64,000 nucleotides of DNA from Myxococcales bacterium (GCA_031423255.1 JANPFD010000022.1:6704-70703); one strand, 5' to 3'; shown: positions 1 through 13,909, numbered from the stretch's first letter. Translations and numbers: made by a program. The notes: generated from the sequence alone by a model not told the origin.

Positions 1-156
1 GCGGCCAGTCTCCCGTGCCGTCGATGGGCGGCCCCGCCGTCGGGCCGGTCAGCGGCCCGTCCTCGATGCGGCAGTCGAGCGGCACGGCGGCTTCGAAACG
101 CGGTGCAGGCAGCGGTATCACGGATGACACCGCAAGGCCGCCGTACGAATAGACCA

Positions 157-1308
157 TCACCCATCCCGGCCGTAGCGGCGCGCGAGCTCTCCCACGCGGA
201 CGAGGGCGCTGTCCCGATCGACCACCACACCCGGAAAACGTTCGAGCAGCGCCGTCGCGATCTCGCCGTTGGTCATCCCGGACGACATCGCCGCGAGGAC
301 GTAGGCGTCCACCTGTCCGGCGTCGTTCAACATCACCCGCTGCTCGGGCGACGCTCGTCGCACGCGGGCCAGCGTCAGCTCCAGACCCTCCCAGTTCGAT
401 TGCTCGAACGCGGCCTTCTCCCGGGTCCCGGCGAATACCCGGGTCGCCCAGGCCCAGATGTATCCGCGGCCGACGAGATCCGCCCGCAGCTTCACCTCGA
501 CCCGGTCGCCCGGATCGAGCGGCACCGGATCGAGCCACGGCAGGAAGACCCGGCCGTAGACGGTCGGAGGCTCGGCCGGGTGATTCGAGAACCCGATGTC
601 GTCGGCGAGGACCGCGTCGAACCAGATCAGAAGACCCCGCGCGGTCGCAGCCCTGTCGGCGACGAGATCGAAGCGCGCGGCGACATGCGGGGAGTTGAGA
701 GTCGGGTAGTCGAGGGTCGCCCATCGAACGGGCTGGCTCATGAGCTCACGCGCCTCGATCGACGTGTCCGAGGACTGGTTGAGGAGAAGCCGCTCGGCCG
801 GACGCATGTCGAAGCCGAGGTCGTTGCCTTGCCACGGGCGGCGGGCGTGGGTGTACGCCTCCTCGGCCTCGACCACGGCGGCGAACAGGTGGTCCCGCTG
901 TCCGACAAGCACACCGTCCGGCGCGAGCAGGCGTTTCCGGATGTCGACGATGTCGACCAAATGCGTCCCGTAGAGCGGGACCGCGCCGCGCAGATCCGAC
1001 ACCACGACGTCCGCTTGCTCGGGGAGCACGACCTCGGACGAATGACGCTCGAAGAACGTCACGCGATCGGCGAAGCCGTTGGCCTTGACCACCTCGCGGG
1101 CCATCTGGATGGCGGGCAACGGCTCGATCGCGTACACGCGGCGCGCGCCGAGACGGCACGCGAGCAGAGCCATGACCCCCGTGCCTGTGCCGATGTCGAG
1201 TACGACGCTGTCTGGCCGTACGACGCTATGAAGAGCGCGGGCGAAGGCATCCATGCGGACGCGGTCCGCCATCATGCGACCGAAGCTCCGGACCGTGTAG
1301 TGCGCCAC
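157..1308 (-). CDS. Class I SAM-dependent methyltransferase, PRMT-like (protein arginine N-methyltransferase-like core with ~180 aa C-terminal extension)
   Basis: Motif I VLDIGTGTGVMALLACRLGARRVYAIE and post-I/II acidic residues resemble PRMT/PrmA-type Rossmann MTases. Long ORF in a codon-biased frame. The antisense ORF 103..1515 is Arg-rich junk. Confidence 0.7.
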   Translation of the reverse strand: MAHYTVRSFGRMMADRVRMDAFARALHSVVRPDSVVLDIGTGTGVMALLACRLGARRVYAIEPLPAIQMAREVVKANGFADRVTFFERHSSEVVLPEQADVVVSDLRGAVPLYGTHLVDIVDIRKRLLAPDGVLVGQRDHLFAAVVEAEEAYTHARRPWQGNDLGFDMRPAERLLLNQSSDTSIEARELMSQPVRWATLDYPTLNSPHVAARFDLVADRAATARGLLIWFDAVLADDIGFSNHPAEPPTVYGRVFLPWLDPVPLDPGDRVEVKLRADLVGRGYIWAWATRVFAGTREKAAFEQSNWEGLELTLARVRRASPEQRVMLNDAGQVDAYVLAAMSSGMTNGEIATALLERFPGVVVDRDSALVRVGELARRYGRDG

Positions 1309-1342
1309 CGGTCTCCGGACTCAGCACATCTTCGGGTTCATG

Positions 1343-1370
1343 TCTGGACTGAAACAGTCCGGATTGTTTT
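1343..1370. other. Second hairpin GGACTG-aaa-CAGTCC (extendable to ~9 bp) followed by T-run on + strand, in 5' region of PRMT-like gene
   Basis: Read directly. Would act as an intrinsic terminator only for plus-strand transcription. Confidence 0.25.
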
Positions 1371-1468
1371 CCCGCACGCTCCCAATGCTGCCGGCGACAA
1401 GAGCCGTGGCGCTGCCGAAGTACGTGAGTTTTGGTTTCACGTACGGCTTGCGTCCTCGTTGATCACTC

Positions 1469-1498
1469 GAGAATGGCTGAACCCCCCCAGCCATTCTC
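1469..1498 (-). terminator. 11-bp perfect stem-loop GAGAATGGCTG-(aacccccc)-CAGCCATTCTC immediately 3' of asnB-like stop
   Basis: Read directly. Overlaps the stop codon of the asnB-like gene. No U-tract follows on the minus strand. Confidence 0.3.
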
Positions 1499-3376
1499 AG
1501 TTCCTCGGTCCGTAGTCAGGGGGCGAACCGCGCGCGCGTGCCATGAAGAGGCCGAGCGCCGCCACCACACCGAGAGACTCACGCGTGTCGACGGGCCAGG
1601 TTTCTTGCGAATCGGCATGCCGAATCTGCGCTTCGAGACATGCGACGTCGACGAACGGTGCCACGTGATTTCGGGTGTACTCTAGCACACCGCGTAGCCA
1701 CGCCACATTGAGCTGGAACAGCCTGTCGCGGAATGGCTCGTGCAGCGCGGGTGCCCATCGGCGCCAGCAGACAGGGTGGGGCAAGACCCCCTCCATGCTC
1801 CGGCGCAGGAGGCTCTTGGGCCACCCCTCGCTCTCGAGGTCGGCCCACGACGAACCGACGCAGAATTCCACGACGCGGCGGTCGAGCAGAGGGTGTCGGG
1901 CCTCGACTGACTGGTGCGCGGCCGTGCGGTCGTACCGCTCGACCCCCGCCTGCAGGAAAGACGAGCAGATGAGGGCGCGTTGCACCTCGTCGGCCGAGGA
2001 TCGAATGAGCGGCGCTGGTCGGATCTGCTCCAGCGTATGCCTCAGCCGGCCGGGCACGTCGACCTGGCGTATCAGGTCCGGATGGATGAACCCGTTTGCC
2101 GATGAAGGCTGGTAGCGGGGTACTCCCGCGCGTCCACGCCACTGTCGCAGAGCGCGCCCGGCGCGGGTCTCGAGCGCGGTTTCCCTCAGCAACGACTCGA
2201 GACCGAAGCGCCACAGAACCTGGAGCGGCGTTTCACCCGACCACCGCGCCCGTCCGCTGGCCGCCTTCCAGGCGGCGCGCGCCCGTCCTTGCAGCAAGGC
2301 CTCCGAGAGTCCCTCCCCCTTGCCGAAGATCAGGTCACCGTCGATGCCGTCCAGCACGACGTCGATGCCACGCGCGCGCGCCTCCGCCCAGGCGAGGAAC
2401 TGGATGTCGTGCATTCCGAAGTCGAAGGGTTCCTCGCAGGTGCTGGCCAGGTCGCGGACCGCCGGCACGAATCGCTCGAGCTCCGATGGACGGATGTAGA
2501 CCGCAGACGTGCCGACGTGGTCGGCGACCTGCCGGATGAGCGCCGTCTCGTGACAGCCTTCGTCGTCGGAGATGCCCGACAGGGTGACGAGCGGCCTGGG
2601 CGCCAGCGCGACGATCGACGAAGAATCGATGCCCCCGCTGAGCATCGCCGCGGGGCGAGCGACATCCCGCAGGCGACAAGCGACAGCCTCGGTCAACAGA
2701 TCCCGGACGTGTTCTCGACGGTCGCCGTCGGAGCGGAACCGTAGCCCGGTGTTCACGTCGGGCCACCAGTAGCGCCGGACGGTCACGTCCTCCTCGGTGA
2801 CTGCCAGCCAGTGACCCGCCGGAAGACGGAGGACGCCACGGTAGAACGTATTGGTGGGGTCGCTGCATTCGAAGAAGCCACCCAGCAGGTAGTCCGCGAC
2901 CCGCCCAGGATCGATCGCCCCCAGGAGACCAGCTGCGCTTGCCACCACGCTGGCATCGGACGCGACGATCACGCGCGCGCGATCGACCGCGTAGCTCAGC
3001 GAGCGCACACCGAGTGCGTCCCGAGCGCACAGCAGCAGGCGCTGGTCTGCGTCCCACAGGACGAATGCAAAATCACCGAGGAGCAAGGGCACCGCGTCCC
3101 GGCCCCAGCGCCGGTAGGCGTGCAGGACCAGCGTGGCGTGATCGGGCACCTCGTCGGGCCGCAGATCGAGGCGCGACAGCAGGTCACCCGCGTTGTCGAG
3201 GCGGACGTCGGCATCGATCGCCAGCCCTCCGAGGACTGCCCCGTGACCGAGGCCCACCGGGCCGGCCGACCAGACCTTGCCCGGCCCCATGCCGCGACGG
3301 CGCATCTGCCGCGACATCGCGCCGAGCGCCGCCTCGTCCACGGGGGCGCGATCGCGTCGAAAGAGGCCGCAGACGG
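1497..3376 (-). CDS. Asparagine synthetase (glutamine-hydrolysing) family amidotransferase (AsnB / beta-lactam-synthetase-like)
   Basis: N-terminal nucleophile Cys directly after the start (VCGLF...), GDFAFVLWD glutaminase motif and PP-loop SGGIDSS. Start assigned at GTG ~3376, immediately after the upstream gene's stop. The ORF-track upstream extension is not coding. Confidence 0.8.
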
Positions 3377-3379
3377 CTC

Positions 3380-4570
3380 TCAGGAGAAGAGCCCCTGAAA
3401 CATGGGCATTCGACGCAGCTCGCGGAAAAGCGGCGCCGTGGCGAGGTCCGCAGGAGGTTCCACGCCTTCGCCTTCTAGGAAAAGTCGCAGAGCGCGCAAC
3501 GAAGGCTCGTCGGCTGCCGGCAGGCCGACCACGCTCGGTTCCCAGGCCTGACCGCCTGCCTGAAGCTTGAGCGTCAGCCGGGACAGCTCGTCGACCCACC
3601 GGACGATGGTGTCGGCGGCGGGAGCGGATATGTCGTAAGCGGCGACAAGTTCCAGGATGTGACGGCGGCCGAGCGCGTTCATCAGCAACGCCAGGAAGAA
3701 GCGGTGCCCGGGGTCCGTCACGTTGGCGCGCCGCGAGATGACGTGATCGACCCGGCGGGCCTCGTGGAGAGCCGCCCCGAAGGCATCGGCCAGCTCGGGA
3801 TCTTGCACCCGTCCGACGAGCCGCGCGAGCCGCGCCTGGTCACCGCTGCGGGCGATCCGGCGCAGACCGACGAAGCAGGTCAACGGATCGGCGCGCTCGA
3901 TGAGCGCACCTTCCAGGCTTTCGCGTTCCGGGTGCTCGCCACGTTCGAGCAGCGCGGTCAGCTGCACGATCCGTTCGCGCCACTCCTCGCGGCGCAGCTG
4001 GTTCACCGCCAGACCGGGACGGTAGTAGTTGTACTGCGGGCCGGCGCGCTCGTCGGAGTAGGTGCGCACCACGATGGTGGCGCTCGGGCGTTCCAGATGG
4101 AACAACGAGTGGATGAAGGCTCGTCCGGCGACAATCGGGCGTATGTCCCCGCGCCTCAGCAGCCCGACCTCGCGGCCGAGGAGCGATCCCAGGACCACAT
4201 CCTCGTTGACGCGGCGGCGGGGTTCGAACTCGAAGCGGGCCTGGACGCTGCTCCCCTCGAGCACCTGGAAGGCGCCGGAAAAACTGTGCTGGTGGATGGT
4301 CGTCGTGCCGTCGAGCCAGAACAGCACCATGATCGCGAAGCGGCGCCCGGCGAACACGGTCAGCGGCGGCTGCCCGAAGGTGGCGTCCACGTCGTGCTGC
4401 GCAGGCAGGGCTCGGGTCGTCAGCCCCCACCGCAAGACGTCCGTCGCCGAGACTTGCCCGGGGAGGTTGGCTGCGGCCAGCTGTTCGGCCGCAATCTGGG
4501 TGAACGCGTCCTCGGCGTGGTGTGCACGCTCCCACGCCAGCTCGACGGCGTCACCCAGCTCGACGAAGGG
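3380..4570 (-). CDS. Hypothetical protein, possible cupin-like fold (His-rich IHQHSF...E, ...FIHSLFHLE)
   Basis: Long ORF between E1-alpha and asnB on the same strand. The N-terminal 84 codons of the track ORF overlap the E1-alpha gene in another frame, so the true start is ~4570 (alternative start codon). No confident family assignment. Confidence 0.45.
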   Translation of the reverse strand, partial: PFVELGDAVELAWERAHHAEDAFTQIAAEQLAAANLPGQVSATDVLRWGLTTRALPAQHDVDATFGQPPLTVFAGRRFAIMVLFWLDGTTTIHQHSFSGAFQVLEGSSVQARFEFEPRRRVNEDVVLGSLLGREVGLLRRGDIRPIVAGRAFIHSLFHLERPSATIVVRTYSDERAGPQYNYYRPGLAVNQLRREEWRERIVQLTALLERGEHPERESLEGALIERADPLTCFVGLRRIARSGDQARLARLVGRVQDPELADAFGAALHEARRVDHVISRRANVTDPGHRFFLALLMNALGRRHILELVAAYDISAPAADTIVRWVDELSRLTLKLQAGGQAWEPSVVGLPAADEPSLRALRLFLEGEGVEPPADLATAPLFRELRRMPMFQGLFS

Positions 4571-4572
4571 CT

Positions 4573-5664
4573 TCAAGGTGCTGTCTTGGGGCTGCGCGCC
4601 TCGGCCTCCGCCTGCTGCTCCGCGAGATGCCAGGGGATGTCTGCGTAAACGTCCGAGAACATCGTCGCCAGCGGCGGCGCGGGCGGCACCTGCTCCACTT
4701 CCTTCAGCGTCGCCGTGAACTGCTGCTCGAAATCGGCGCGGAACCTGGTCTCGTCGGCCTCGCTCCAGAGGTTGCGCGACTCGAGGTACTTGCGGAAGCG
4801 GGGCAGGGGATCGTGCGGCTCCCACTCCTTGGGCTCGCTGGGGTCACGGTAGACGGAGGGGTCGTCGGACGAGCTGTGGGCGCCCCGACGATAGGTGCGG
4901 GCCTCGATCAGCGTCGGCCCGTCGCCACGGCGGGCGCGGGCTGCCGCCTCGGCAGTGGCGTGCACCATCGCCAGCGGATCGTTGCCGTCGACCAGCACGC
5001 CGGGCATGCCGTAGGCGATCGCCTTCTGCGCGAAGGTGACGGCGGCCGTCTGCACCGAGCGCGGCACCGAGATCGCCCAGCCGTTGTTGCGGCAGACGAA
5101 GATGCAGGGGGCCTTGCGGACAGCGGCGAAGTTGCAGGCGACGTGGAAGGCGCCTGTCGAGGTGGCGCCGTCGCCGAAGAAGGTCAACGCCACGTCGTCC
5201 TTGCCCGACAGCTGTGCGCCCATGGCGATGCCGACCGCCTGCGGGATCTGCGTGCCGACCGGCGAGCTGATCGACACGAAATTCAGCGATCGAACCGAGT
5301 GGTGCACGGGCATCTGGCGGCCCTTCACCGGATCCTCGGCGTTGCCGAACAGCTGGCACAGGAAGGTGCGCAGCGGGTAACCCCGGTACAGCGCCGACGA
5401 CGTCTCGCGGTACGAGGAGTAGATCCAGTCGCCCGGGCGCAGGGCCGCGGCGGCGCCGACGGCGACCGCCTCCTCGCCAGTGGAGGTCAGGTAGAACCCG
5501 ATGCGGCCCTGGCGCTGTAGCCGCAGAAGACGCTCGTCGAGCAGCCGCGACAGCAGGATGGTCTCGTACATCTTCCGGAGGGTCGCCTCCGGGAGGCCCG
5601 GATCACGGTCCGGGCGCACCACCCGGCCGTCGTCGTCGAGCACCTTGATGACCTCGAGGTTCAC
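4573..5664 (-). CDS. TPP-dependent 2-oxoacid dehydrogenase E1 component, alpha subunit (pyruvate/acetoin/branched-chain E1-alpha family)
   Basis: YLTSTGEEAVAVGAAAAL and GDGATSTGAFHVACNFAAV (GDG-x25-N TPP-binding motif), 363 aa. No E1-beta gene follows. Confidence 0.85.
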   Translation of the reverse strand: MNLEVIKVLDDDGRVVRPDRDPGLPEATLRKMYETILLSRLLDERLLRLQRQGRIGFYLTSTGEEAVAVGAAAALRPGDWIYSSYRETSSALYRGYPLRTFLCQLFGNAEDPVKGRQMPVHHSVRSLNFVSISSPVGTQIPQAVGIAMGAQLSGKDDVALTFFGDGATSTGAFHVACNFAAVRKAPCIFVCRNNGWAISVPRSVQTAAVTFAQKAIAYGMPGVLVDGNDPLAMVHATAEAAARARRGDGPTLIEARTYRRGAHSSSDDPSVYRDPSEPKEWEPHDPLPRFRKYLESRNLWSEADETRFRADFEQQFTATLKEVEQVPPAPPLATMFSDVYADIPWHLAEQQAEAEARSPKTAP

Positions 5665-5685
5665 AGGTAGACCTTACCACTCCAT

Positions 5686-6127
5686 GAAGCTGCGCTTGCG
5701 CGACGTCATCAGTTACGAGGGCAAGGACTACATCGTCGAGGGTCTCTTGACGTACAAGCTGGGCGGCAAGGTGTACCGCCTGGCCCGCGCGGTCGACGGT
5801 GTCGACGTCCGCTGGATCGAGCCGCTGACGGACGACGCCGACGACCGGATCCTCTGGTTCAGCGACGCCAAGGACCTGGACATGGCCACCCCCCCGCCGC
5901 AGACCATCTCGTACCGCGGTAAAAGTTACCTGCCGCGGCTGTCGGGCCAGGCGCAGGTGGCCGTCGAGGGCAAGGTGCCGGAGCGTTTCGCCGGCACGTG
6001 CGAGGTGTGGCGCTACCGCGCCGCTGGCGACCTGTTCCTGCAGATCGAGAAGTGGCCCGACCGCACCGTCACGCTGACCGGCGAGGGGGTTCACAAGAAC
6101 ATGATCGACGTGCTCCCGGGAGCCTAG
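5686..6127 (+). CDS. Small conserved hypothetical protein (~147 aa)
   Basis: ATG at 5686 ([31 protein letters not shown]...). The upstream part of track ORF 5501.. overlaps E1-alpha and is not coding. Confidence 0.5.
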
Positions 6128-6129
6128 CC

Positions 6130-6876
6130 ATGCACAAGCTCGTACTGCTGCGACACGGGGAGAGCGACTGGAACCGCGAGAACCGGTTCACCGGCTGGGC
6201 GGACGTGGATCTGTCCGAGACCGGCCTCGAGGAAGCGAAGGCCGCCGGCGCGTTGCTCAAGCGCGAGGGCTATGTCTTCGACCACAGCTTCACCTCCGTG
6301 CTCAAGCGGGCCATCCGGACGCACTGGCTGGCGCTCGAAGCGCTGGATCAGCTGTGGCTGCCGGTCGAGCGATCGTGGCGGCTGAACGAACGGCACTACG
6401 GCGCCTTGCAAGGGTTGAACAAGGCGGAGACCGCGGCCAAGTACGGCGACGAACAGGTGAAGATCTGGCGGCGCAGCTACGACATCCCGCCGCCGGCGCT
6501 GGACAAGAGCAGCCCGCACTATCCGGGCAACGATTCGCGCTACACGAACCTGTCGCCTTCCGAGTTGCCGACGACCGAGTGCCTGAAGGACACGGTTGCC
6601 CGGTTCCTGCCGCTGTGGCACGAGCGGGTAGCGCCGCTGGTCAAGTCGGGCAAGCGCGTGCTGATCGCTGCCCACGGCAACAGCTTGCGCGCGCTGGTGA
6701 AGTACCTGGACGACATCTCGGAGCAGGAGATCGTCGAGCTGAACATCCCCACCGGCATCCCGCTGGTGTACGAGCTGGACGACCACCTGAAGCCGATCCG
6801 CCATTACTACCTGGGCAATCAGGCCGAGATCGAGGCCAAGATGAAGGCCGTCGCCGCCCAGGGAAAAGCGAAGTAA
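6130..6876 (+). CDS. gpmA: 2,3-bisphosphoglycerate-dependent phosphoglycerate mutase
   Basis: [23 protein letters not shown]..., RHG catalytic motif and full-length dPGM similarity. ATG at 6130. Confidence 0.9.
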
Positions 6877-7347
6877 CTACTTTCGAAGCTGCTTTTCCAG
6901 CAGCTTGTAGGCCGCACCGAGCTTCTGCGAGAGCTCGTTGGCGGCCTTCTGCTTTTCGGGCGTCTGTACGTGGCGGTCGGGGTGGTACTTGCGCATCAGA
7001 GTCCGGTACGACTTGCGCACGGTCTCGAAGTTCGAACCCTGGGGCACCTCGAGTGCGGCGTAGGCGCGACGGATCTCATCGCTGTGGCTTGGGGACGGCG
7101 GCGGGGGCGCGGCGCGACTGGTGGGGCGCGGGCGTTCGGTCCGTGCGGCCTTGGCGGCCGTTTCCCGCGCCTTGCGCCGGCGCTCGAGTTCGGCCTCGAG
7201 TTGCTCGTCCGTCAGCGTGTTCATGCCGTAGCGGCGGTAAAGATCATCGTCGGGATCGTGCGCCTCCGATGAGGAACTCCCCGCACGTTCGAGCAGGTCA
7301 TTGAGCTCGGCCCGCGCGAGGTCGATGAGACGCTTCCCGATGCTCAT
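6877..7347 (-). CDS. J-domain (DnaJ-like) protein with C-terminal J domain
   Basis: C-terminal YRTLMRKYHPDRH... AAYKLLE matches the J-domain HPD motif. Pro/Ala/Arg-rich linker. Convergent with gpmA. Confidence 0.65.
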   Translation of the reverse strand: MSIGKRLIDLARAELNDLLERAGSSSSEAHDPDDDLYRRYGMNTLTDEQLEAELERRRKARETAAKAARTERPRPTSRAAPPPPSPSHSDEIRRAYAALEVPQGSNFETVRKSYRTLMRKYHPDRHVQTPEKQKAANELSQKLGAAYKLLEKQLRK

Positions 7348-7369
7348 GCCGCGTAATTTATCACTTCAG

Positions 7370-7792
7370 CTATTTGTTGTAGGGCTCGCCGCGCAACGAG
7401 GAGATGCAGCGGTAGATCTGCTCGCAGAGCACCACCCTGGCCAGCCGGTGGGGAAGGGTGAGAGGCGAGAGCGACAGGCGACGCTGGGCTTTCGCCACCA
7501 CATCGGCGGGAAGGCCTTCGGCGCCGCCGATGAGGAAGACCACCGCGCGGGACCCACGCAGCATCCGTTCGCCCAGGAAGTCGGTGAACTGCCGCGTGGT
7601 CCAGGCATCGCCGCCGGGCTCGAGCGCGATCACCTCGGCGCCGGCAGGAAGCTGCTTGACCAGCGCGGCCGCGTCGTCGACCTCGGCCACCTCGACGGAA
7701 AGGTGCCGGCGGGCCCGGTCGACGTACTCGCGGCATAGCTCGTCCAGGCGGCGGTCGCGCATCTTGCCGACCGCGCGAACGAGGATTTTCAT
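7370..7792 (-). CDS. rlmH: 23S rRNA (pseudouridine1915-N3)-methyltransferase RlmH (SPOUT)
   Basis: 140-aa SPOUT fold typical of RlmH/YbeA. Immediately downstream of rsfS, as in the conserved rsfS-rlmH arrangement. Confidence 0.85.
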   Translation of the reverse strand: MKILVRAVGKMRDRRLDELCREYVDRARRHLSVEVAEVDDAAALVKQLPAGAEVIALEPGGDAWTTRQFTDFLGERMLRGSRAVVFLIGGAEGLPADVVAKAQRRLSLSPLTLPHRLARVVLCEQIYRCISSLRGEPYNK

Positions 7793-8329
7793 CTAGAGCG
7801 CGTAAAGAGCGTCGCTCTGGTACAGCTGGGCTTCGGGAGGGATGGTCAGCGGCACCCGCGCGGCGTCGATCCACAGCCCCTCGATGTCATACACTTCGCG
7901 CACCGGGTGATAGAAGACGTGCATCACGACGTCGCCGAAGTCGAGCAGCGTCCAGCGGCCGTTGCCGCGGCCCTCCCGGCCGAGCAGGCGCCAGCCACGG
8001 CTCTGCATCGTGGCAATCACGTTCTCGGAGATGGCGTCGACCTGGCGGTCGCTCCGGCCGCTGACCACGCCGATGAAGTCGGTGTAGCTGGCGGTCGCGG
8101 AGACGTCCAGCAGCACCGGCAGCAACGCCTTTTTCTCGAGCGCGGACTCGATCGCAGCCTGCGCCGCGTCACGCGACGCGCGCACACGTGGGCCAGCTGA
8201 CGCGACGACGGGGACCGGGGCCCGGTTGACCGGCTGTTTCCGAGGCTTGGGAGAGGGGGTCTTTTTCTGGCCGGGGCGCGTCTTCGTCACGTACCTCCTC
8301 ATCGTAGCAAAGGCCCGGGGTTGCCTCAA
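7793..8329 (-). CDS. rsfS: Ribosomal silencing factor RsfS (Iojap family), with basic N-terminal extension
   Basis: LLPVLLDVSATASYTDFIGVVSGRSDRQVDAISENV...WTLLDFGDVVMHVF is Iojap/RsfS-like. Confidence 0.8.
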   Translation of the reverse strand: MRQPRAFATMRRYVTKTRPGQKKTPSPKPRKQPVNRAPVPVVASAGPRVRASRDAAQAAIESALEKKALLPVLLDVSATASYTDFIGVVSGRSDRQVDAISENVIATMQSRGWRLLGREGRGNGRWTLLDFGDVVMHVFYHPVREVYDIEGLWIDAARVPLTIPPEAQLYQSDALYAL

Positions 8330-10036: not shown

Positions 10037-10903
10037 GTGGACGCCAGTGACTGGCTGAACTCGCCTGTCGCGGTGATCACGGCGGGGTTGTTCGGCGCGG
10101 TCTGGGGCAGCTTCTTCAACGTCTGCATCGCCCGGATCCCACTCGGGAAGTCGGTCGTGCATCCGGGGTCGCACTGCTTTGCTTGCAACCAGCCTGTGCG
10201 GGCCTACGACAACGTGCCGCTGCTGTCGTACCTGCTGTTGCGAGGGCGCTGTCGTTCCTGCGGCGTACGCTTCTCGCCGCGCTACCTGCTGGTCGAGGTG
10301 CTGTCGGGTGTGCTGGCGGCGCTGGTATTCTGGCAGTTCGTGGCGGCGGCGCCGGAGGTGCCCACGGCCATCAGGCTGGCGCGGTTTGCCGTCTACTTCG
10401 CGCTGGCCGGGGTGCTGGTCGTGCTGTCCCTCATCGATCTCGACACCAAACGGTTGCCCGACATCATCACCCTGCCGGCGGTGCCGGTGCTGTTCCTCGC
10501 CGCGTTCGGCGCGCAGGACGTGCCCTGGATCGAGCGAGGGATCGGAGCCGTCGCCGGCTACGTGGTGGTGCGGGTGATCGCCGACGGTTACTACTACCTG
10601 ACCGGGCGCGAGGGGCTGGGCCTCGGCGACGGCAAGCTCCTGGCGGTGGTGGGCGCGGTGCTGGGGTGGCGGGCGATCCCGGTGGTGATCTTCGGGGCTT
10701 CGTTCGTCGGCATTGCCGTCAGCGTGCCGCTGCTTCTCGCCCAGCGTCGGAATGCCGTCCCAGAGCCAGCGACCGCCGAGGATGCTCCGCCGGTCCGCCA
10801 CACCGAGGTGCCGTTCGGGCCCTTCCTGTCGCTCAGCGCGCTCGTCTACCTGTTCTGCCGCGACAGGCTGTGGGCGTGGGCGATGCGCCTCGTGGGGGCG
10901 TAG
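10037..10903 (+). CDS. pilD: Type IV prepilin peptidase / N-methyltransferase (A24 family)
   Basis: N-terminal Zn tetracysteine CFACNQPV...CRSCGVRF. Catalytic Asp regions LIDLDTKRLPD and GLGDGKL. Polytopic membrane profile. GTG start at 10037. Confidence 0.8.
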   Translation: MDASDWLNSPVAVITAGLFGAVWGSFFNVCIARIPLGKSVVHPGSHCFACNQPVRAYDNVPLLSYLLLRGRCRSCGVRFSPRYLLVEVLSGVLAALVFWQFVAAAPEVPTAIRLARFAVYFALAGVLVVLSLIDLDTKRLPDIITLPAVPVLFLAAFGAQDVPWIERGIGAVAGYVVVRVIADGYYYLTGREGLGLGDGKLLAVVGAVLGWRAIPVVIFGASFVGIAVSVPLLLAQRRNAVPEPATAEDAPPVRHTEVPFGPFLSLSALVYLFCRDRLWAWAMRLVGA

Positions 10904-10915
10904 TACAATTCGCCG

Positions 10916-13909
10916 GTGCGTGCTGTCGCATCGGGCGGTGCCTTGGCGCTGCTGCTCGTGGCAGGGCCAGCCCAGGCGCTGGATCCGCACAAGCGGGTGT
11001 CCCAGTACACCTACCGGACCTGGGGCGAGGAGACCGGGCTGCCCCAGCCGAGCGTCTACGCGATCGCACAGACGACGGAGGGATATCTGTGGCTGGGCAC
11101 CGAGGCCGGGCTGGCGCGGTTCGACGGCGAGACCTTCACCGCCGTCGTCCCGACGGACGGGATAGGCTCCTCCAACCAGGTAAGAGCCATCCTCATCGCG
11201 CGCGACGGTGCCTTCTGGCTCGGCACGCGCGGGGGCGAGGGTCTGCTGCGCTTCAATGGCAAGACCGTCGGCACGACCTTCGAGTCGTTCCGTGGTCGCA
11301 CCGGCCTCGCCAGCCACGGCACGCTGTCGGCTTTCGAGGACAGCCGCGGGGATCTCTGGCTGGGCGGATGGCGTGGCGTGGTGCGATTTTCGCGCGGGCG
11401 CTTCGATGCCTTCTCCGACAAGGATGGTTTGCCCTTTGGCGGGGTGCTGGCGATCGCCGAGGCCGAGGACAGCACGCTCTGGTTCGCCACGTCGACGGGC
11501 GTGGGGCGGATGCGCGCCGGCGTCTTCGACACCGTGCGCGTCGAGGGCCTGGACGGGCAACGTGTCACGGCGATCCTCGCGGACGGATCGGGCGTCTGGG
11601 CCGGAAGCTCGACCGGACTCTACCGGTTGGACGGGGATGACGGGGGCAAGGTACGGCGACTCGGCCGCGGCGACGGCCTCCCGGGGGACGCGGTCAACGT
11701 GCTGTTCCGCGATCGCGACGGGAACATCTGGGTGGGCACCGACGAAGGCATCGCCCGGATGCGCGACGGCGAGATCCAGGCGCTCACACCTGGAGCGCCG
11801 AACAACGACAGCTTCATCTCCGCGTTCGAGGACCGTGAGGGGAACCTGTGGCTGGGGACGCGCGCCGGCGGGCTGGTGCGGCTGTCGGACGGTAAGTTCT
11901 CGACGCTCACCACGGCGGAGGGACTTCCCTCGAACCTGACGACCGCCGTGCTACAGACGCGCGACGGGGCGCTGTGGATCGGCACCGAAGGCGCGGGGCT
12001 GATCCGCTTCGCCGAGGGCCGTTACAAGACGATCACCACCGCCGACGGGCTGTGCACCAATCTGGTGATCTCGCTGTTCGAGGGCGCCGACGGCAGCCTC
12101 TGGGTCGGCGGCGGCACGGGTGGGCGCTCGGCGCTCTGCCGGCTGCGGAAGGACGGGACGATCCGCTCCTACACCGAGGCGGATGGGATGCCGCGCAACG
12201 AGCACGGCCGCGTGGTGTACGAGAGTCCGAGTGGCAAGACCTACGTCGGTACCGAGCGCGTCTTCGTGTACGAGAACGACCGGATGGTCCTGCTGGATCA
12301 TCCGCGCGCCCATGCGAAGCCAGGCCCCAACGTCTTCAGCCTCCACGAGGACCGCAAGGGTGGCTTGTGGGTCGGCCTCGGCAACGGCCTGTGGCACCGA
12401 AAAAAGGGCGAGACGGCGTGGAAGGAGTACCGGACGCCAGCCGCCTCGCTGTCGGCGCACCTCGTCTATCACATCAGCGAGGATCCAGACGGGACGCTGT
12501 GGATGGGCACCAGCCGGGGGATGACCCGGTACCGCGACGGCGTCTTCCGGCCCTACATGGCCACGCGCGGCCTGTTCGATCACCAGGTATTCCATGTCCA
12601 CGACGACGGCGCGGGACTGCTGTGGCTGGCGACGTCGCGCGGCGTGTTCCGCGTGCGCAAGCAGGACTTCGACGAGTTCGACCAGGGCAAGCTGACGGCG
12701 ATCCCGTTCACCCGCTTCGGTATCGGCGACGGCATGAAGACCGACCAGTGCTCGGGCATGGGACCGTCGGGGGTGGTGCGCGCGCGCGACGGACGGTTGC
12801 TGTTCGCCACCAGCAAGGGTCTGGCGACGGTCGATCCGAACCGCCTGCCCATCAACACAGTACCGCCCAACGTCGTCGTCGAACGGGTGGTGGCTGATGG
12901 GCACGTCCTCGCCAGCGGCGCGGCCGCAACTCCCGGCACGCGATCGCTCGAGGTGCACTACACGGCGCTATCGTTCACTGCGCCCGAGAAGGTGCGCTTC
13001 AAGTACCGCCTGGAGCCCTTCGATCGCGACTGGATCGACGCCGAGGGCCGTCGTACGGCGTACTACACGAACCTGCCGCCGGGGAGCTACCGCTTCAGGG
13101 TCGTGGCCGCCAACAACGACGGGGTCTGGAATCGTCAGGGCGCCTTGATGGCCTTCGCCCTCGCGCCCTATTTCCACGAGACGGTGTTCTTCCGGGTTCT
13201 GGTGGTGCTGGGGATCGGCATCATCGGCTGGGCGATTCACAAGCGGCGCCTGGCGCAGGTGGAGGCGCGCCACGTGGCGGTGCTGGCCGAGCGCACCCGG
13301 ATCGCGCGCGAGATGCACGACACCCTGGCGCAGGGGTTCACCGGGATCTCGCTGCACCTGGAGGCGGCGGTGAAGAAACTGATCGCCGGAGCGCCGGATC
13401 GCGCGCAGTGGTGTCTGGACCAGGCGCGGTTGCAGGTGCGGGCGTCGCTGGCGGAGGCGCGGCGGGCGGTCTGGGGGCTGCGGTCACAGGTGCTCGACAG
13501 CGGCGACCTGTCGACGGCGCTGTCCCAGGTGATCGACAAGCTCCGCGGAGAGACGCCGATGCGCCTGTCGGTGTCGGGCGAGGTTCGGCCACTTCCCGAG
13601 AACCACGAGCAGACGCTGGTGCGGGTGGCGCAGGAGGCGTTGACGAATGCCGTCCGGCACGCGCGCGCCTCGGAGATCTCGGTCGAACTCACGTACGGGC
13701 CGGACGTGGTCGAGCTGCGGGTGCGGGACAACGGGGTGGGTTTCGACGTGGATGCCCAGTTCCCCGGACACTTCGGTCTGGTCGGCATCCGGGAGCGGGT
13801 AGCGGCGCTGGGCGGCGAGCTGTCCGTGCAGAGCGCGCGTGGCGAGGGTACTCTGGTGGCGGTCCGTTTGCCGGTCCCGACCGCCACCGAGCGGCCGCGC
13901 GCGGCCTGA
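10916..13909 (+). CDS. Sensor histidine kinase with periplasmic beta-propeller (two-component regulator propeller repeats + Y_Y_Y), HisKA_3 and HATPase_c domains
   Basis: Signal peptide, then ~12 repeated (D/E)GxLWxGT modules. TM segment, H-box EMHDTLAQGF and ATPase motifs VRDNGVGFD / GLVGIRERV. Confidence 0.85.
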   Translation: MRAVASGGALALLLVAGPAQALDPHKRVSQYTYRTWGEETGLPQPSVYAIAQTTEGYLWLGTEAGLARFDGETFTAVVPTDGIGSSNQVRAILIARDGAFWLGTRGGEGLLRFNGKTVGTTFESFRGRTGLASHGTLSAFEDSRGDLWLGGWRGVVRFSRGRFDAFSDKDGLPFGGVLAIAEAEDSTLWFATSTGVGRMRAGVFDTVRVEGLDGQRVTAILADGSGVWAGSSTGLYRLDGDDGGKVRRLGRGDGLPGDAVNVLFRDRDGNIWVGTDEGIARMRDGEIQALTPGAPNNDSFISAFEDREGNLWLGTRAGGLVRLSDGKFSTLTTAEGLPSNLTTAVLQTRDGALWIGTEGAGLIRFAEGRYKTITTADGLCTNLVISLFEGADGSLWVGGGTGGRSALCRLRKDGTIRSYTEADGMPRNEHGRVVYESPSGKTYVGTERVFVYENDRMVLLDHPRAHAKPGPNVFSLHEDRKGGLWVGLGNGLWHRKKGETAWKEYRTPAASLSAHLVYHISEDPDGTLWMGTSRGMTRYRDGVFRPYMATRGLFDHQVFHVHDDGAGLLWLATSRGVFRVRKQDFDEFDQGKLTAIPFTRFGIGDGMKTDQCSGMGPSGVVRARDGRLLFATSKGLATVDPNRLPINTVPPNVVVERVVADGHVLASGAAATPGTRSLEVHYTALSFTAPEKVRFKYRLEPFDRDWIDAEGRRTAYYTNLPPGSYRFRVVAANNDGVWNRQGALMAFALAPYFHETVFFRVLVVLGIGIIGWAIHKRRLAQVEARHVAVLAERTRIAREMHDTLAQGFTGISLHLEAAVKKLIAGAPDRAQWCLDQARLQVRASLAEARRAVWGLRSQVLDSGDLSTALSQVIDKLRGETPMRLSVSGEVRPLPENHEQTLVRVAQEALTNAVRHARASEISVELTYGPDVVELRVRDNGVGFDVDAQFPGHFGLVGIRERVAALGGELSVQSARGEGTLVAVRLPVPTATERPRAA

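Follow-up and report, generated by a model that had tools for sequence, protein, structure and literature searches.

Gene content and boundaries of the locus

A 64,000-nt stretch of the genome of a Myxococcales bacterium (GCA_031423255.1, JANPFD010000022.1:6704-70703; hereafter the window, with positions counted from its first nucleotide) begins with a row of minus-strand genes (1-5664, GC approximately 69%) in which we identified members of a lasso peptide biosynthetic cluster (Table 1). An earlier note, made from the sequence alone, had described four large open reading frames (ORFs) here, namely a thiamine pyrophosphate (TPP)-dependent E1-alpha lacking its E1-beta partner, a cupin-like protein, an AsnB-type amidotransferase and a methyltransferase resembling protein arginine methyltransferases (PRMTs). 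All four are present on the minus strand and are packed as tightly as described: the TGA of the E1-alpha gene overlaps the TTG start of the cupin gene (TTGA, 4576-4573), the cupin gene lies at most 38 nt from the amidotransferase (below, cyclase) gene, and the methyltransferase TGA shares one base, at position 157, with the ATG of the next gene. That next gene, encoding an HprK-related kinase, had been missed, as had a 57-aa ORF that fills the apparent 190-bp gap between the cyclase and methyltransferase genes and encodes the lasso precursor. The precursor ATG, with GAGGA upstream, follows the cyclase stop codon after 2 nt, and the methyltransferase GTG, with GGAGA upstream, follows the precursor stop codon after 12 nt. 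A promoter and terminator scan of positions 1-6200 returned nothing beyond chance, with no sigma-70-like promoter and no convincing terminator, and an Rfam scan of positions 1-8000 gave zero matches.

The left flank was recovered by an exact-sequence look-up of the methyltransferase gene, which led to the 5,970-bp Logan contig L087. This contig is 100% identical to window positions 1-4104 and reaches 1,866 bp further. On it, the kinase gene is complete (303 aa; HprK_rel_A 7.9e-11, below the cutoff) and its product contains LHGS, the P-loop GESGAGKST and LSDD, in line with the His/Lys/Asp-Asp motif of kinases from Bsf-type clusters. Beyond the kinase gene, L087 encodes a B2 leader peptidase on the opposite strand (NF033537, 55.8 bits with a cutoff of 33; Transglut_core3, 63.6 bits; Cys and His present) and a B1 PqqD chaperone (Pfam PqqD, 55.3 bits with a cutoff of 23.4; NF033536, 46 bits with a cutoff of 80). 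With A, B1, B2 and a probable C all present, the full minimal lasso machinery is encoded, plus a kinase. Searching the window itself with tblastn for B1, B2, an ABC exporter or a nucleotidyltransferase gave zero matches.

A partial gene after B1 on L087 shares 71% identity with the Pkinase gene found two genes past E1-alpha in a relative (L084). As the right flank is also colinear with relatives, the block from cupin to B1 (approximately 6.1 kb) can be placed directly between two core genes, where it replaces a 212-aa gene. Window positions 1-4576 (minus strand), together with about 1.5 kb past the left edge, thus very probably constitute a lasso peptide island of approximately 6.1 kb flanked by the E1-alpha gene and a Ser/Thr protein kinase gene. 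All seven ORFs of the island are intact and tightly coupled. Three of the four genes listed in the earlier note (cupin, cyclase and methyltransferase) belong to a cluster for a peptide that is made on the ribosome and modified after translation (RiPP), and E1-alpha lies outside it. The suggestion of a biosynthetic or tailoring unit, not a housekeeping pyruvate dehydrogenase (PDH), was therefore correct, but not the inclusion of E1-alpha in that unit.

Table 1. Position and basis of the features described in the text.
Feature	Sequence	Coordinates	Strand	Basis or remark
TPP-dependent E1-alpha	window	4573-5664	minus	E1_dh, TIGR03181; flanking core gene
Thiol-dioxygenase-like cupin with C-terminal helical domain, 398 aa	window	3380-4576	minus	TTG start; first island gene
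Lasso cyclase (C protein, Asn synthetase homologue)	window	1497-3341 (GTG, 614 aa) or to 3383 (CTG)	minus	NF033535, Asn_synthase
Lasso precursor peptide (A), 57 aa	window	1321-1494	minus	ORF and leader motif
PRMT-fold S-adenosylmethionine (SAM) methyltransferase, 383 aa	window	157-1308	minus	GTG start at 1308; PRMT2 profile match
HprK-related peptide kinase (K), first 52 codons of a 303-aa gene that runs past the window edge	window	1-157	minus	ATG at 157
Prepilin peptidase	window	10100-10903	plus	A24_N_bact, Peptidase_A24
997-aa protein next to prepilin peptidase	window	10916-13909	plus	by eye
HprK-like kinase with in-frame N-terminal PqqD-like segment	L002	8605-9822	minus	segment by eye
HprK-like kinase with in-frame N-terminal PqqD-like segment	L003	2543-3562	minus	Pfam PqqD match
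Diverged methyltransferase paralogue, 404 aa	L054	14565-15779		31% identity over 282 residues
Diverged methyltransferase paralogue	L040	19585-20733		
PqqD-Cys-rich genes	L053	11364-11894, 11956-12471, 12921-13430	minus	
PqqD-Cys-rich genes	L075	1674-2174, 2261-2779, 3188-3745		
PqqD-Cys-rich gene	L010	11380-11907		

Precursor peptide and cyclase

The 57-aa precursor consists of the leader MAGGVQPFSSDQRGRKPYVKPKLTYFGSATALVA, which ends in YVKPKLTYFGSATALVA, followed by the predicted core GSIGSVRENNPDCFSPDMNPKMC, which contains two Cys. Counted back from the first Gly of the core, the YxxPxL motif of the leader falls into the register Y(-17), P(-14), L(-12), with Val at -2 and Ala at -1. Homologous precursors adjoin the cyclase gene in four other loci (L002, L003, L005 and L021), and in an alignment of the window precursor, the characterised precursor BsfA and four Polyangia/Myxococcota precursors encoded next to cyclases, Y(-17), P(-14), L(-12) and G1 were directly seen to be invariant. 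Gly1 and Glu8 agree with the definition of a lasso core (Gly, Ala, Ser or Cys at the start; Asp or Glu at positions 7-9), and from its sequence the core is predicted to form a Gly1-Glu8 macrolactam. It opens with G-S-I-G-S, has Ser at positions 2, 5 and 14, and includes Arg7 and Lys21.

Predicted cores from clusters that encode both a kinase and a methyltransferase (L088-L167) were rich in Met (11.7% of residues; Met in 16 of 19 cores) and Gly (approximately 20%), and often terminated in K-T, R-T or K-T-G; D-M and K-M-C occur in the window core. This richness in Met and Gly and the basic ends may be relevant to the target of the methyltransferase or kinase, or to metal binding.

The protein described as an AsnB-type amidotransferase does belong to the Asn_synthase family (Pfam, 3.9e-44), with an SGGIDS ATP-binding motif visible in the sequence, but it is most probably a lasso cyclase: true asparagine synthases scored far lower than its best NCBIfam family, NF033535 (lasso peptide isopeptide bond-forming cyclase; 6.9e-96, 322 bits). 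The intact N-terminal Cys attributed to it does not exist as such. The codon before this Cys in the cyclase frame is GTC (3374-3372), which is no start codon, and the usable starts are a GTG at 3341, called on the identical contig L087, or a CTG at 3383, which is colinear with the M-S-G-I-V-G-I N-termini of the homologues and would overlap the cupin stop codon. The Cys in question aligns with Val5 of these homologues, in which the position of the AsnB nucleophile is occupied by Ser, and the protein does not resemble solved Asn synthetases before residue 81. The GTC codon, the Val5 alignment and the late onset of similarity rule out an AsnB-type glutaminase acting through an N-terminal Cys; finding no evidence for a glutaminase function is as expected for a lasso cyclase.

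A thiol-dioxygenase-like cupin

The cupin has no Pfam or NCBIfam match and belongs to a family of at least 1,500 homologues, mainly from Acidobacteriota and Myxococcota. Its AlphaFold2 (AF2) model (pLDDT 91.3) comprises an N-terminal cupin domain (approximately 190 aa) and an all-helical C-terminal domain (approximately 200 aa), and the top Foldseek matches were all thiol dioxygenases, i.e. cysteine dioxygenase (CDO), 2-aminoethanethiol dioxygenase (ADO), 3-mercaptopropionate dioxygenase, plant cysteine oxidase and ergothioneine dioxygenase. This fold rules out a diverged E1-beta, the identity that the earlier note had said would refute its reading. The four residues H95, H97, H156 and H160 do not vary among 30 homologues, and the H-x-H...H pattern is compatible with a three-His site. 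There is no significant sequence similarity to CDO, 3-mercaptopropionate dioxygenase, ADO or plant cysteine oxidases, as the family profile gave a marginal CDO match at best when compared with Protein Data Bank (PDB) sequences (E = 1), in a weak HMM alignment that covers the H-x-H region only. The window protein also differs from thiol dioxygenases in its fourth invariant His, in the extra helical domain and in having Arg171 in place of the Ser-His-Tyr triad; the expected triad positions, located by eye from their spacing to the third His, are occupied by V169, the invariant R171 and a non-conserved residue 173.

Direct counts of genomic context placed the cyclase within 10 kb of the cupin in 20 of 83 cupin-anchored loci, in several gene orders: the cupin gene is divergent from B1 in L002 and L005, lies 6 kb away in L003 and stands directly upstream of B1-B2-C-A in L054. 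It stands next to lasso genes in Acidobacteriota (L039, L040, L054 and others) and in no fewer than five loci of the Myxococcota type (the window, L002, L003, L005 and L021); of the five Myxococcota-type cores encoded beside a cupin, four contain exactly two Cys. Elsewhere the commonest neighbours of the cupin are PqqD-Cys-rich genes (48 of 81 loci), NTP_transf_5 genes (28), HprK-like kinases (19 plus 12) and a MauE-thioredoxin protein (12). We favour a role for this enzyme in modifying Cys of ribosomal peptides, in which it would most likely oxidise or otherwise modify the Cys of the two-Cys core.

Several observations weigh against such a role. The cupin has neither the CDO triad nor a Pfam CDO match, 63 of the 83 cupin loci show no cyclase within the available sequence, the acidobacterial lasso cores beside the cupin in L039, L040 and L054 are free of Cys, and just one of 80 methyltransferase-anchored clusters contains a cupin; given the last three points, the link between cupin and lasso genes is statistical and not obligatory. 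The same three points, together with the size of the family, would fit a cupin that is a passenger in a genuine lasso cluster, namely a cytoplasmic thiol (or other) dioxygenase with a general role, for which the lasso peptide is not a substrate. We take this explanation seriously and consider it somewhat unlikely: the gene sits inside the inserted block between core genes and close to the cyclase gene, it recurs by lasso genes in Myxococcota-type loci of differing gene order as well as in Acidobacteriota, and its commonest neighbours are peptide-modification genes (PqqD fusions, HprK-like kinases and NTP_transf_5).

The PqqD-Cys-rich genes occur beside the cupin as one to three copies in tandem, mostly in Pyrinomonadaceae/Blastocatellia. 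They encode proteins of approximately 165-190 aa with an N-terminal PqqD domain (PF05402, 28 bits), a segment resembling a twin-arginine signal (S/T-R-R-x-x-x-R, a hydrophobic stretch and A-Q-A) and a tail of 30-45 aa that is hypervariable and contains about six Cys. These proteins look like an undescribed precursor type that carries its recognition element in cis; none was found in the window (tblastn).

A PRMT-fold methyltransferase coupled to a kinase

The methyltransferase belongs to a family of more than 1,100 members. A profile built from 30 homologues matched PRMT2, PRMT1, PRMT6, PRMT8 and CARM1 over the SAM domain and the beta-barrel (E from 1e-44 to 1e-35), with PRMT2 as the best match (1.4e-44, residues 5-271), and Pfam PRMT_C scored 27.8 bits. 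The AF2 model (pLDDT 88.6) likewise matched PRMTs in Foldseek (2e-27, TM up to 0.83). The description of this protein as PRMT-like is therefore accurate for the fold but not for the arginine-binding residues. In an alignment of 120 homologues the first Glu position of the double-E loop is Asp in 119 (D94 in the window protein), the second is Gln, Gly, Glu or Arg (46, 28, 19 and 17 homologues, respectively; Gly in the window protein) and the THW loop is replaced by (I/V)-Y-G, whereas the loop has acquired two conserved residues, Arg96 (104 of 120) and His105 (112 of 120). On this sequence comparison, the predicted PRMT fold is kept and the double-E and THW residues that bind arginine are lost.

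In the AF2 model the C-terminus forms a disordered linker followed by a family-conserved three-helix domain that contains no beta-sheet. An LN..G...EI pattern prompted the idea that this domain may be a second RiPP recognition element; in the hhalign comparison with B1 proteins it resembled the helical half of PqqD weakly (probability 36%, 27 columns), and Pfam PqqD gave no match.

Across the methyltransferase-anchored metagenome loci, a kinase gene was directly observed in 61 of 80, always on the same strand (61 of 61), almost always upstream (59 of 61) and at a median gap of 26 bp. Among the 35 loci of at least 7 kb, 31 contained a kinase, 28 a cyclase, 24 a B1 protein and 23 an NTP_transf_5 protein. 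Such co-occurrence with kinase, cyclase and B1 marks the methyltransferase as an enzyme that is dedicated to lasso tailoring and works in connection with the kinase. Taken together with this coupling, the swap of the acidic pocket for Asp, Arg and His points to an anionic group as the most likely methylation target, which would be a carboxylate or the phosphate that the kinase installs. Alternatively, the enzyme could be a genuine N-methyltransferase of arginine (or lysine) that acts on core Arg7 or Lys21, which would agree with the full PRMT catalytic and beta-barrel fold, and with the basic residue that many cores of methyltransferase clusters carry near their C-terminus (K-T or R-T). We nevertheless judge this improbable, since the changes in the double-E and THW loops and the conservation of Arg96 and His105 amount to a charge reversal that argues against guanidinium binding, and the strict pairing with a kinase suggests action on, or next to, a phosphorylated site.

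Some acidobacterial lasso clusters (L054, L040 and L135) encode a second, diverged paralogue of the PRMT-fold methyltransferase; the identity given for L054 in Table 1 is to the window enzyme.

Comparison with characterised systems

Among characterised systems, the one nearest to the window cluster is the bsf cluster of Bradymonas sediminis FA350, comprising bsfA, B1, B2, C, D, K and N (Duan et al. 2023, PMC10368454), whose precursor BsfA has YxxPxL at -17 to -12, cyclises Gly1 onto Asp8 and carries Ile rather than Thr at -2 (PMC10368454). The window cluster has in common with it the split B1 and B2 proteins, an Asn-synthetase-type cyclase, an HprK-like kinase, a YxxPxL leader, an aliphatic residue at -2 and the closure of Gly1 onto an acidic residue 8, and the BsfA leader YKKPQLTYHSTLAAIIR is very similar to its counterpart YVKPKLTYFGSATALVA in the window. 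The two clusters differ in that bsf has an exporter (D) and a nucleotidyltransferase (N), neither of which was seen at the window cluster, while the latter adds the PRMT-fold methyltransferase and the thiol-dioxygenase-like cupin, both absent from bsf. The window core also contains two Cys and has Ile3 instead of the phosphorylated Ser3 of BsfA.

An HprK-like kinase together with B1 is likewise found in clusters of the paeninodin/pseudomycoidin type (PadeK, ThcoK and PsmK), in which the linear precursor is modified by the kinase while the leader is still attached, and B1 is the common recognition element (PMC9266682). The target of those kinases is a Ser conserved at the C-terminus, a position that Cys occupies in the window core; they also come from other phyla and have no methyltransferase partner. 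In two Polyangia-type clusters, L002 and L003, the HprK-like kinase carries an in-frame N-terminal PqqD-like segment, detected as a Pfam PqqD match in the gene call of L003 and by eye in L002, where it lies in an N-terminal extension beyond the called 338-aa gene; the window cluster, unlike these, has an unfused kinase and a separate B1.

Known lasso methyltransferases are the C-terminal carboxyl O-methyltransferases StspM and LasF and the protein isoaspartate methyltransferase (PIMT)-type enzymes TceM and LihM, which form aspartimide (PMC9266682). All are SAM-dependent tailoring enzymes of a lasso peptide or its precursor, as proposed here for the window methyltransferase, but they have another fold, the window enzyme combining type-I PRMT architecture with the three-helix C-terminal domain and being coupled to a kinase. 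In the literature that we searched there was no link between a PRMT-like enzyme and lasso peptides, and nothing relevant on lasso peptides together with a thiol dioxygenase or cupin; a June 2026 review of lasso modifications lists no PRMT-like enzyme and no dioxygenase of the cupin's type. Lasso peptides are a well-known RiPP class and the cluster itself is ordinary; part of its value lies in two widespread, uncharacterised accessory enzymes. If the proposed chemistry holds, these would extend the range of RiPP modifications by the oxidation of Cys and by methyl transfer to a site that is phosphorylated or anionic.

Proposed biosynthetic pathway

The order of steps proposed here is taken by analogy from Bsf. 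The PqqD chaperone B1 would first bind the 57-aa precursor through its YxxPxL leader, after which the HprK-like kinase would phosphorylate a Ser of the core. The cysteine protease B2 would then cut after Val(-2)-Ala(-1), allowing the Asn-synthetase-like cyclase to close the Gly1-Glu8 macrolactam ring. Further tailoring would be carried out by the PRMT-fold methyltransferase, with its conserved Asp/Arg/His pocket, and by the thiol-dioxygenase-like cupin. Taking both accessory enzymes together, the kinase and methyltransferase may install a methylated phosphate or another O-methylated anion on lasso peptides, while the cupin may be a new Cys-oxidising RiPP enzyme that mainly serves acidobacterial precursors of the PqqD/Tat-like/Cys-rich kind; as a whole this combination is tentative and rather unlikely to hold in every part.

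Some features of the locus count against a functional pathway of this kind. The cyclase score lies below the curated NF033535 cutoff of 525, its start codon is uncertain (GTG at 3341 or the rare CTG at 3383), no ABC exporter or immunity gene was seen adjoining the island, and with Ile in place of the Ser3 that is phosphorylated in BsfA, only Ser2, Ser5 and Ser14 are available to the kinase. The low cyclase score, the absence of a canonical cyclase start at the position colinear with homologues and the lack of a visible exporter could indicate a decaying remnant with no product. We regard this as quite improbable in view of the seven intact, tightly coupled ORFs, the intact precursor motif and the retention of catalytic motifs, i.e. 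SGGIDS in the cyclase, Cys and His in B2, and the P-loop and DD in the kinase.

E1-alpha as a flanking core gene

The E1-alpha protein has an intact E1_dh domain (Pfam, 2.6e-93), its sequence shows a GDG...NN TPP motif, and its score falls just short of the TIGR03181 equivalog cutoff (402.5 bits, cutoff 411), in keeping with E1 proteins of PDH and branched-chain 2-oxo acid dehydrogenase (BCKDH) operons. Unlike those operons it has no adjoining E1-beta or E2 gene and is instead paired divergently with a DUF4178 gene. The earlier observation of a missing E1-beta was confirmed for the entire window: when the E1-beta and E2 proteins from a normal operon in L028 were used as tblastn queries, no homologue of either was detected there.

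Orthologues with 68-80% identity are present in four relatives (P0122, P0156, P0166 and P0230). E1-beta adjoins E1-alpha in none of them, and the divergent pair with DUF4178 is found in all four as well as in the window, where the two start codons are 19 bp apart (pair within 4573-6127; loci L084, L086 and L168). Genes for gpmA (His_Phos_1), a DnaJ-domain protein, the SPOUT methyltransferase RlmH and RsfS precede E1-alpha in three of the four relatives and stand in identical order in the window (5684-8329). What lies downstream differs from relative to relative: a 180-aa hypothetical protein and then DapA/DapB; a 212-aa membrane protein and then Pkinase; a Big_3_5 protein in the opposite orientation; and an F5/8 type C protein. 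From this conserved synteny, the orphan state in relatives and the unrelated genes that follow each time, E1-alpha is a flanking core gene. Its orphan state is lineage-wide and unrelated to the neighbouring genes, and the spot downstream of it looks like a variable insertion site. Since the E1-alpha stop codon overlaps the cupin start codon, E1-alpha and the island are probably co-transcribed; E1-alpha is a housekeeping-type gene that lies upstream by chance and probably supplies read-through transcription to the island.

The co-conservation expected under the earlier note was found for its other genes, cupin, cyclase and methyltransferase occurring together in L039, L040 and L054, but not for E1-alpha, which adjoins none of the 83 cupin-anchored loci (in L028 one unrelated E1-alpha/E1-beta/E2 operon is found at a distance of 6 kb) and is in none of the 80 methyltransferase-anchored loci. 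An orphan E1-alpha leading a novel pathway is accordingly not supported: a single small-molecule route, with a 2-oxo acid decarboxylated in a TPP-dependent step and then amidated and methylated, would draw on the common strand of all the genes, on the overlap of the E1-alpha stop with the cupin start and on the missing E1-beta, but it is hardly credible when the orthologues are equally orphan, with the same upstream synteny, in four relatives without the other genes, when E1-alpha is absent from the cupin- and methyltransferase-anchored loci save for that one ordinary operon, and when the supposed amidotransferase is flanked by a lasso precursor in a set completed by B1 and B2. The locus is a cautionary case: E1-alpha looked like a member of the pathway because its stop codon, that of a core gene, overlaps the first start codon of the inserted island.

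Other genes in the window

Further into the window, a prepilin peptidase gene is colinear with the relatives, which is consistent with an ordinary core-genome context. The 997-aa protein encoded next to it looks, by eye, like a histidine-kinase sensor of the beta-propeller/Y_Y_Y type.

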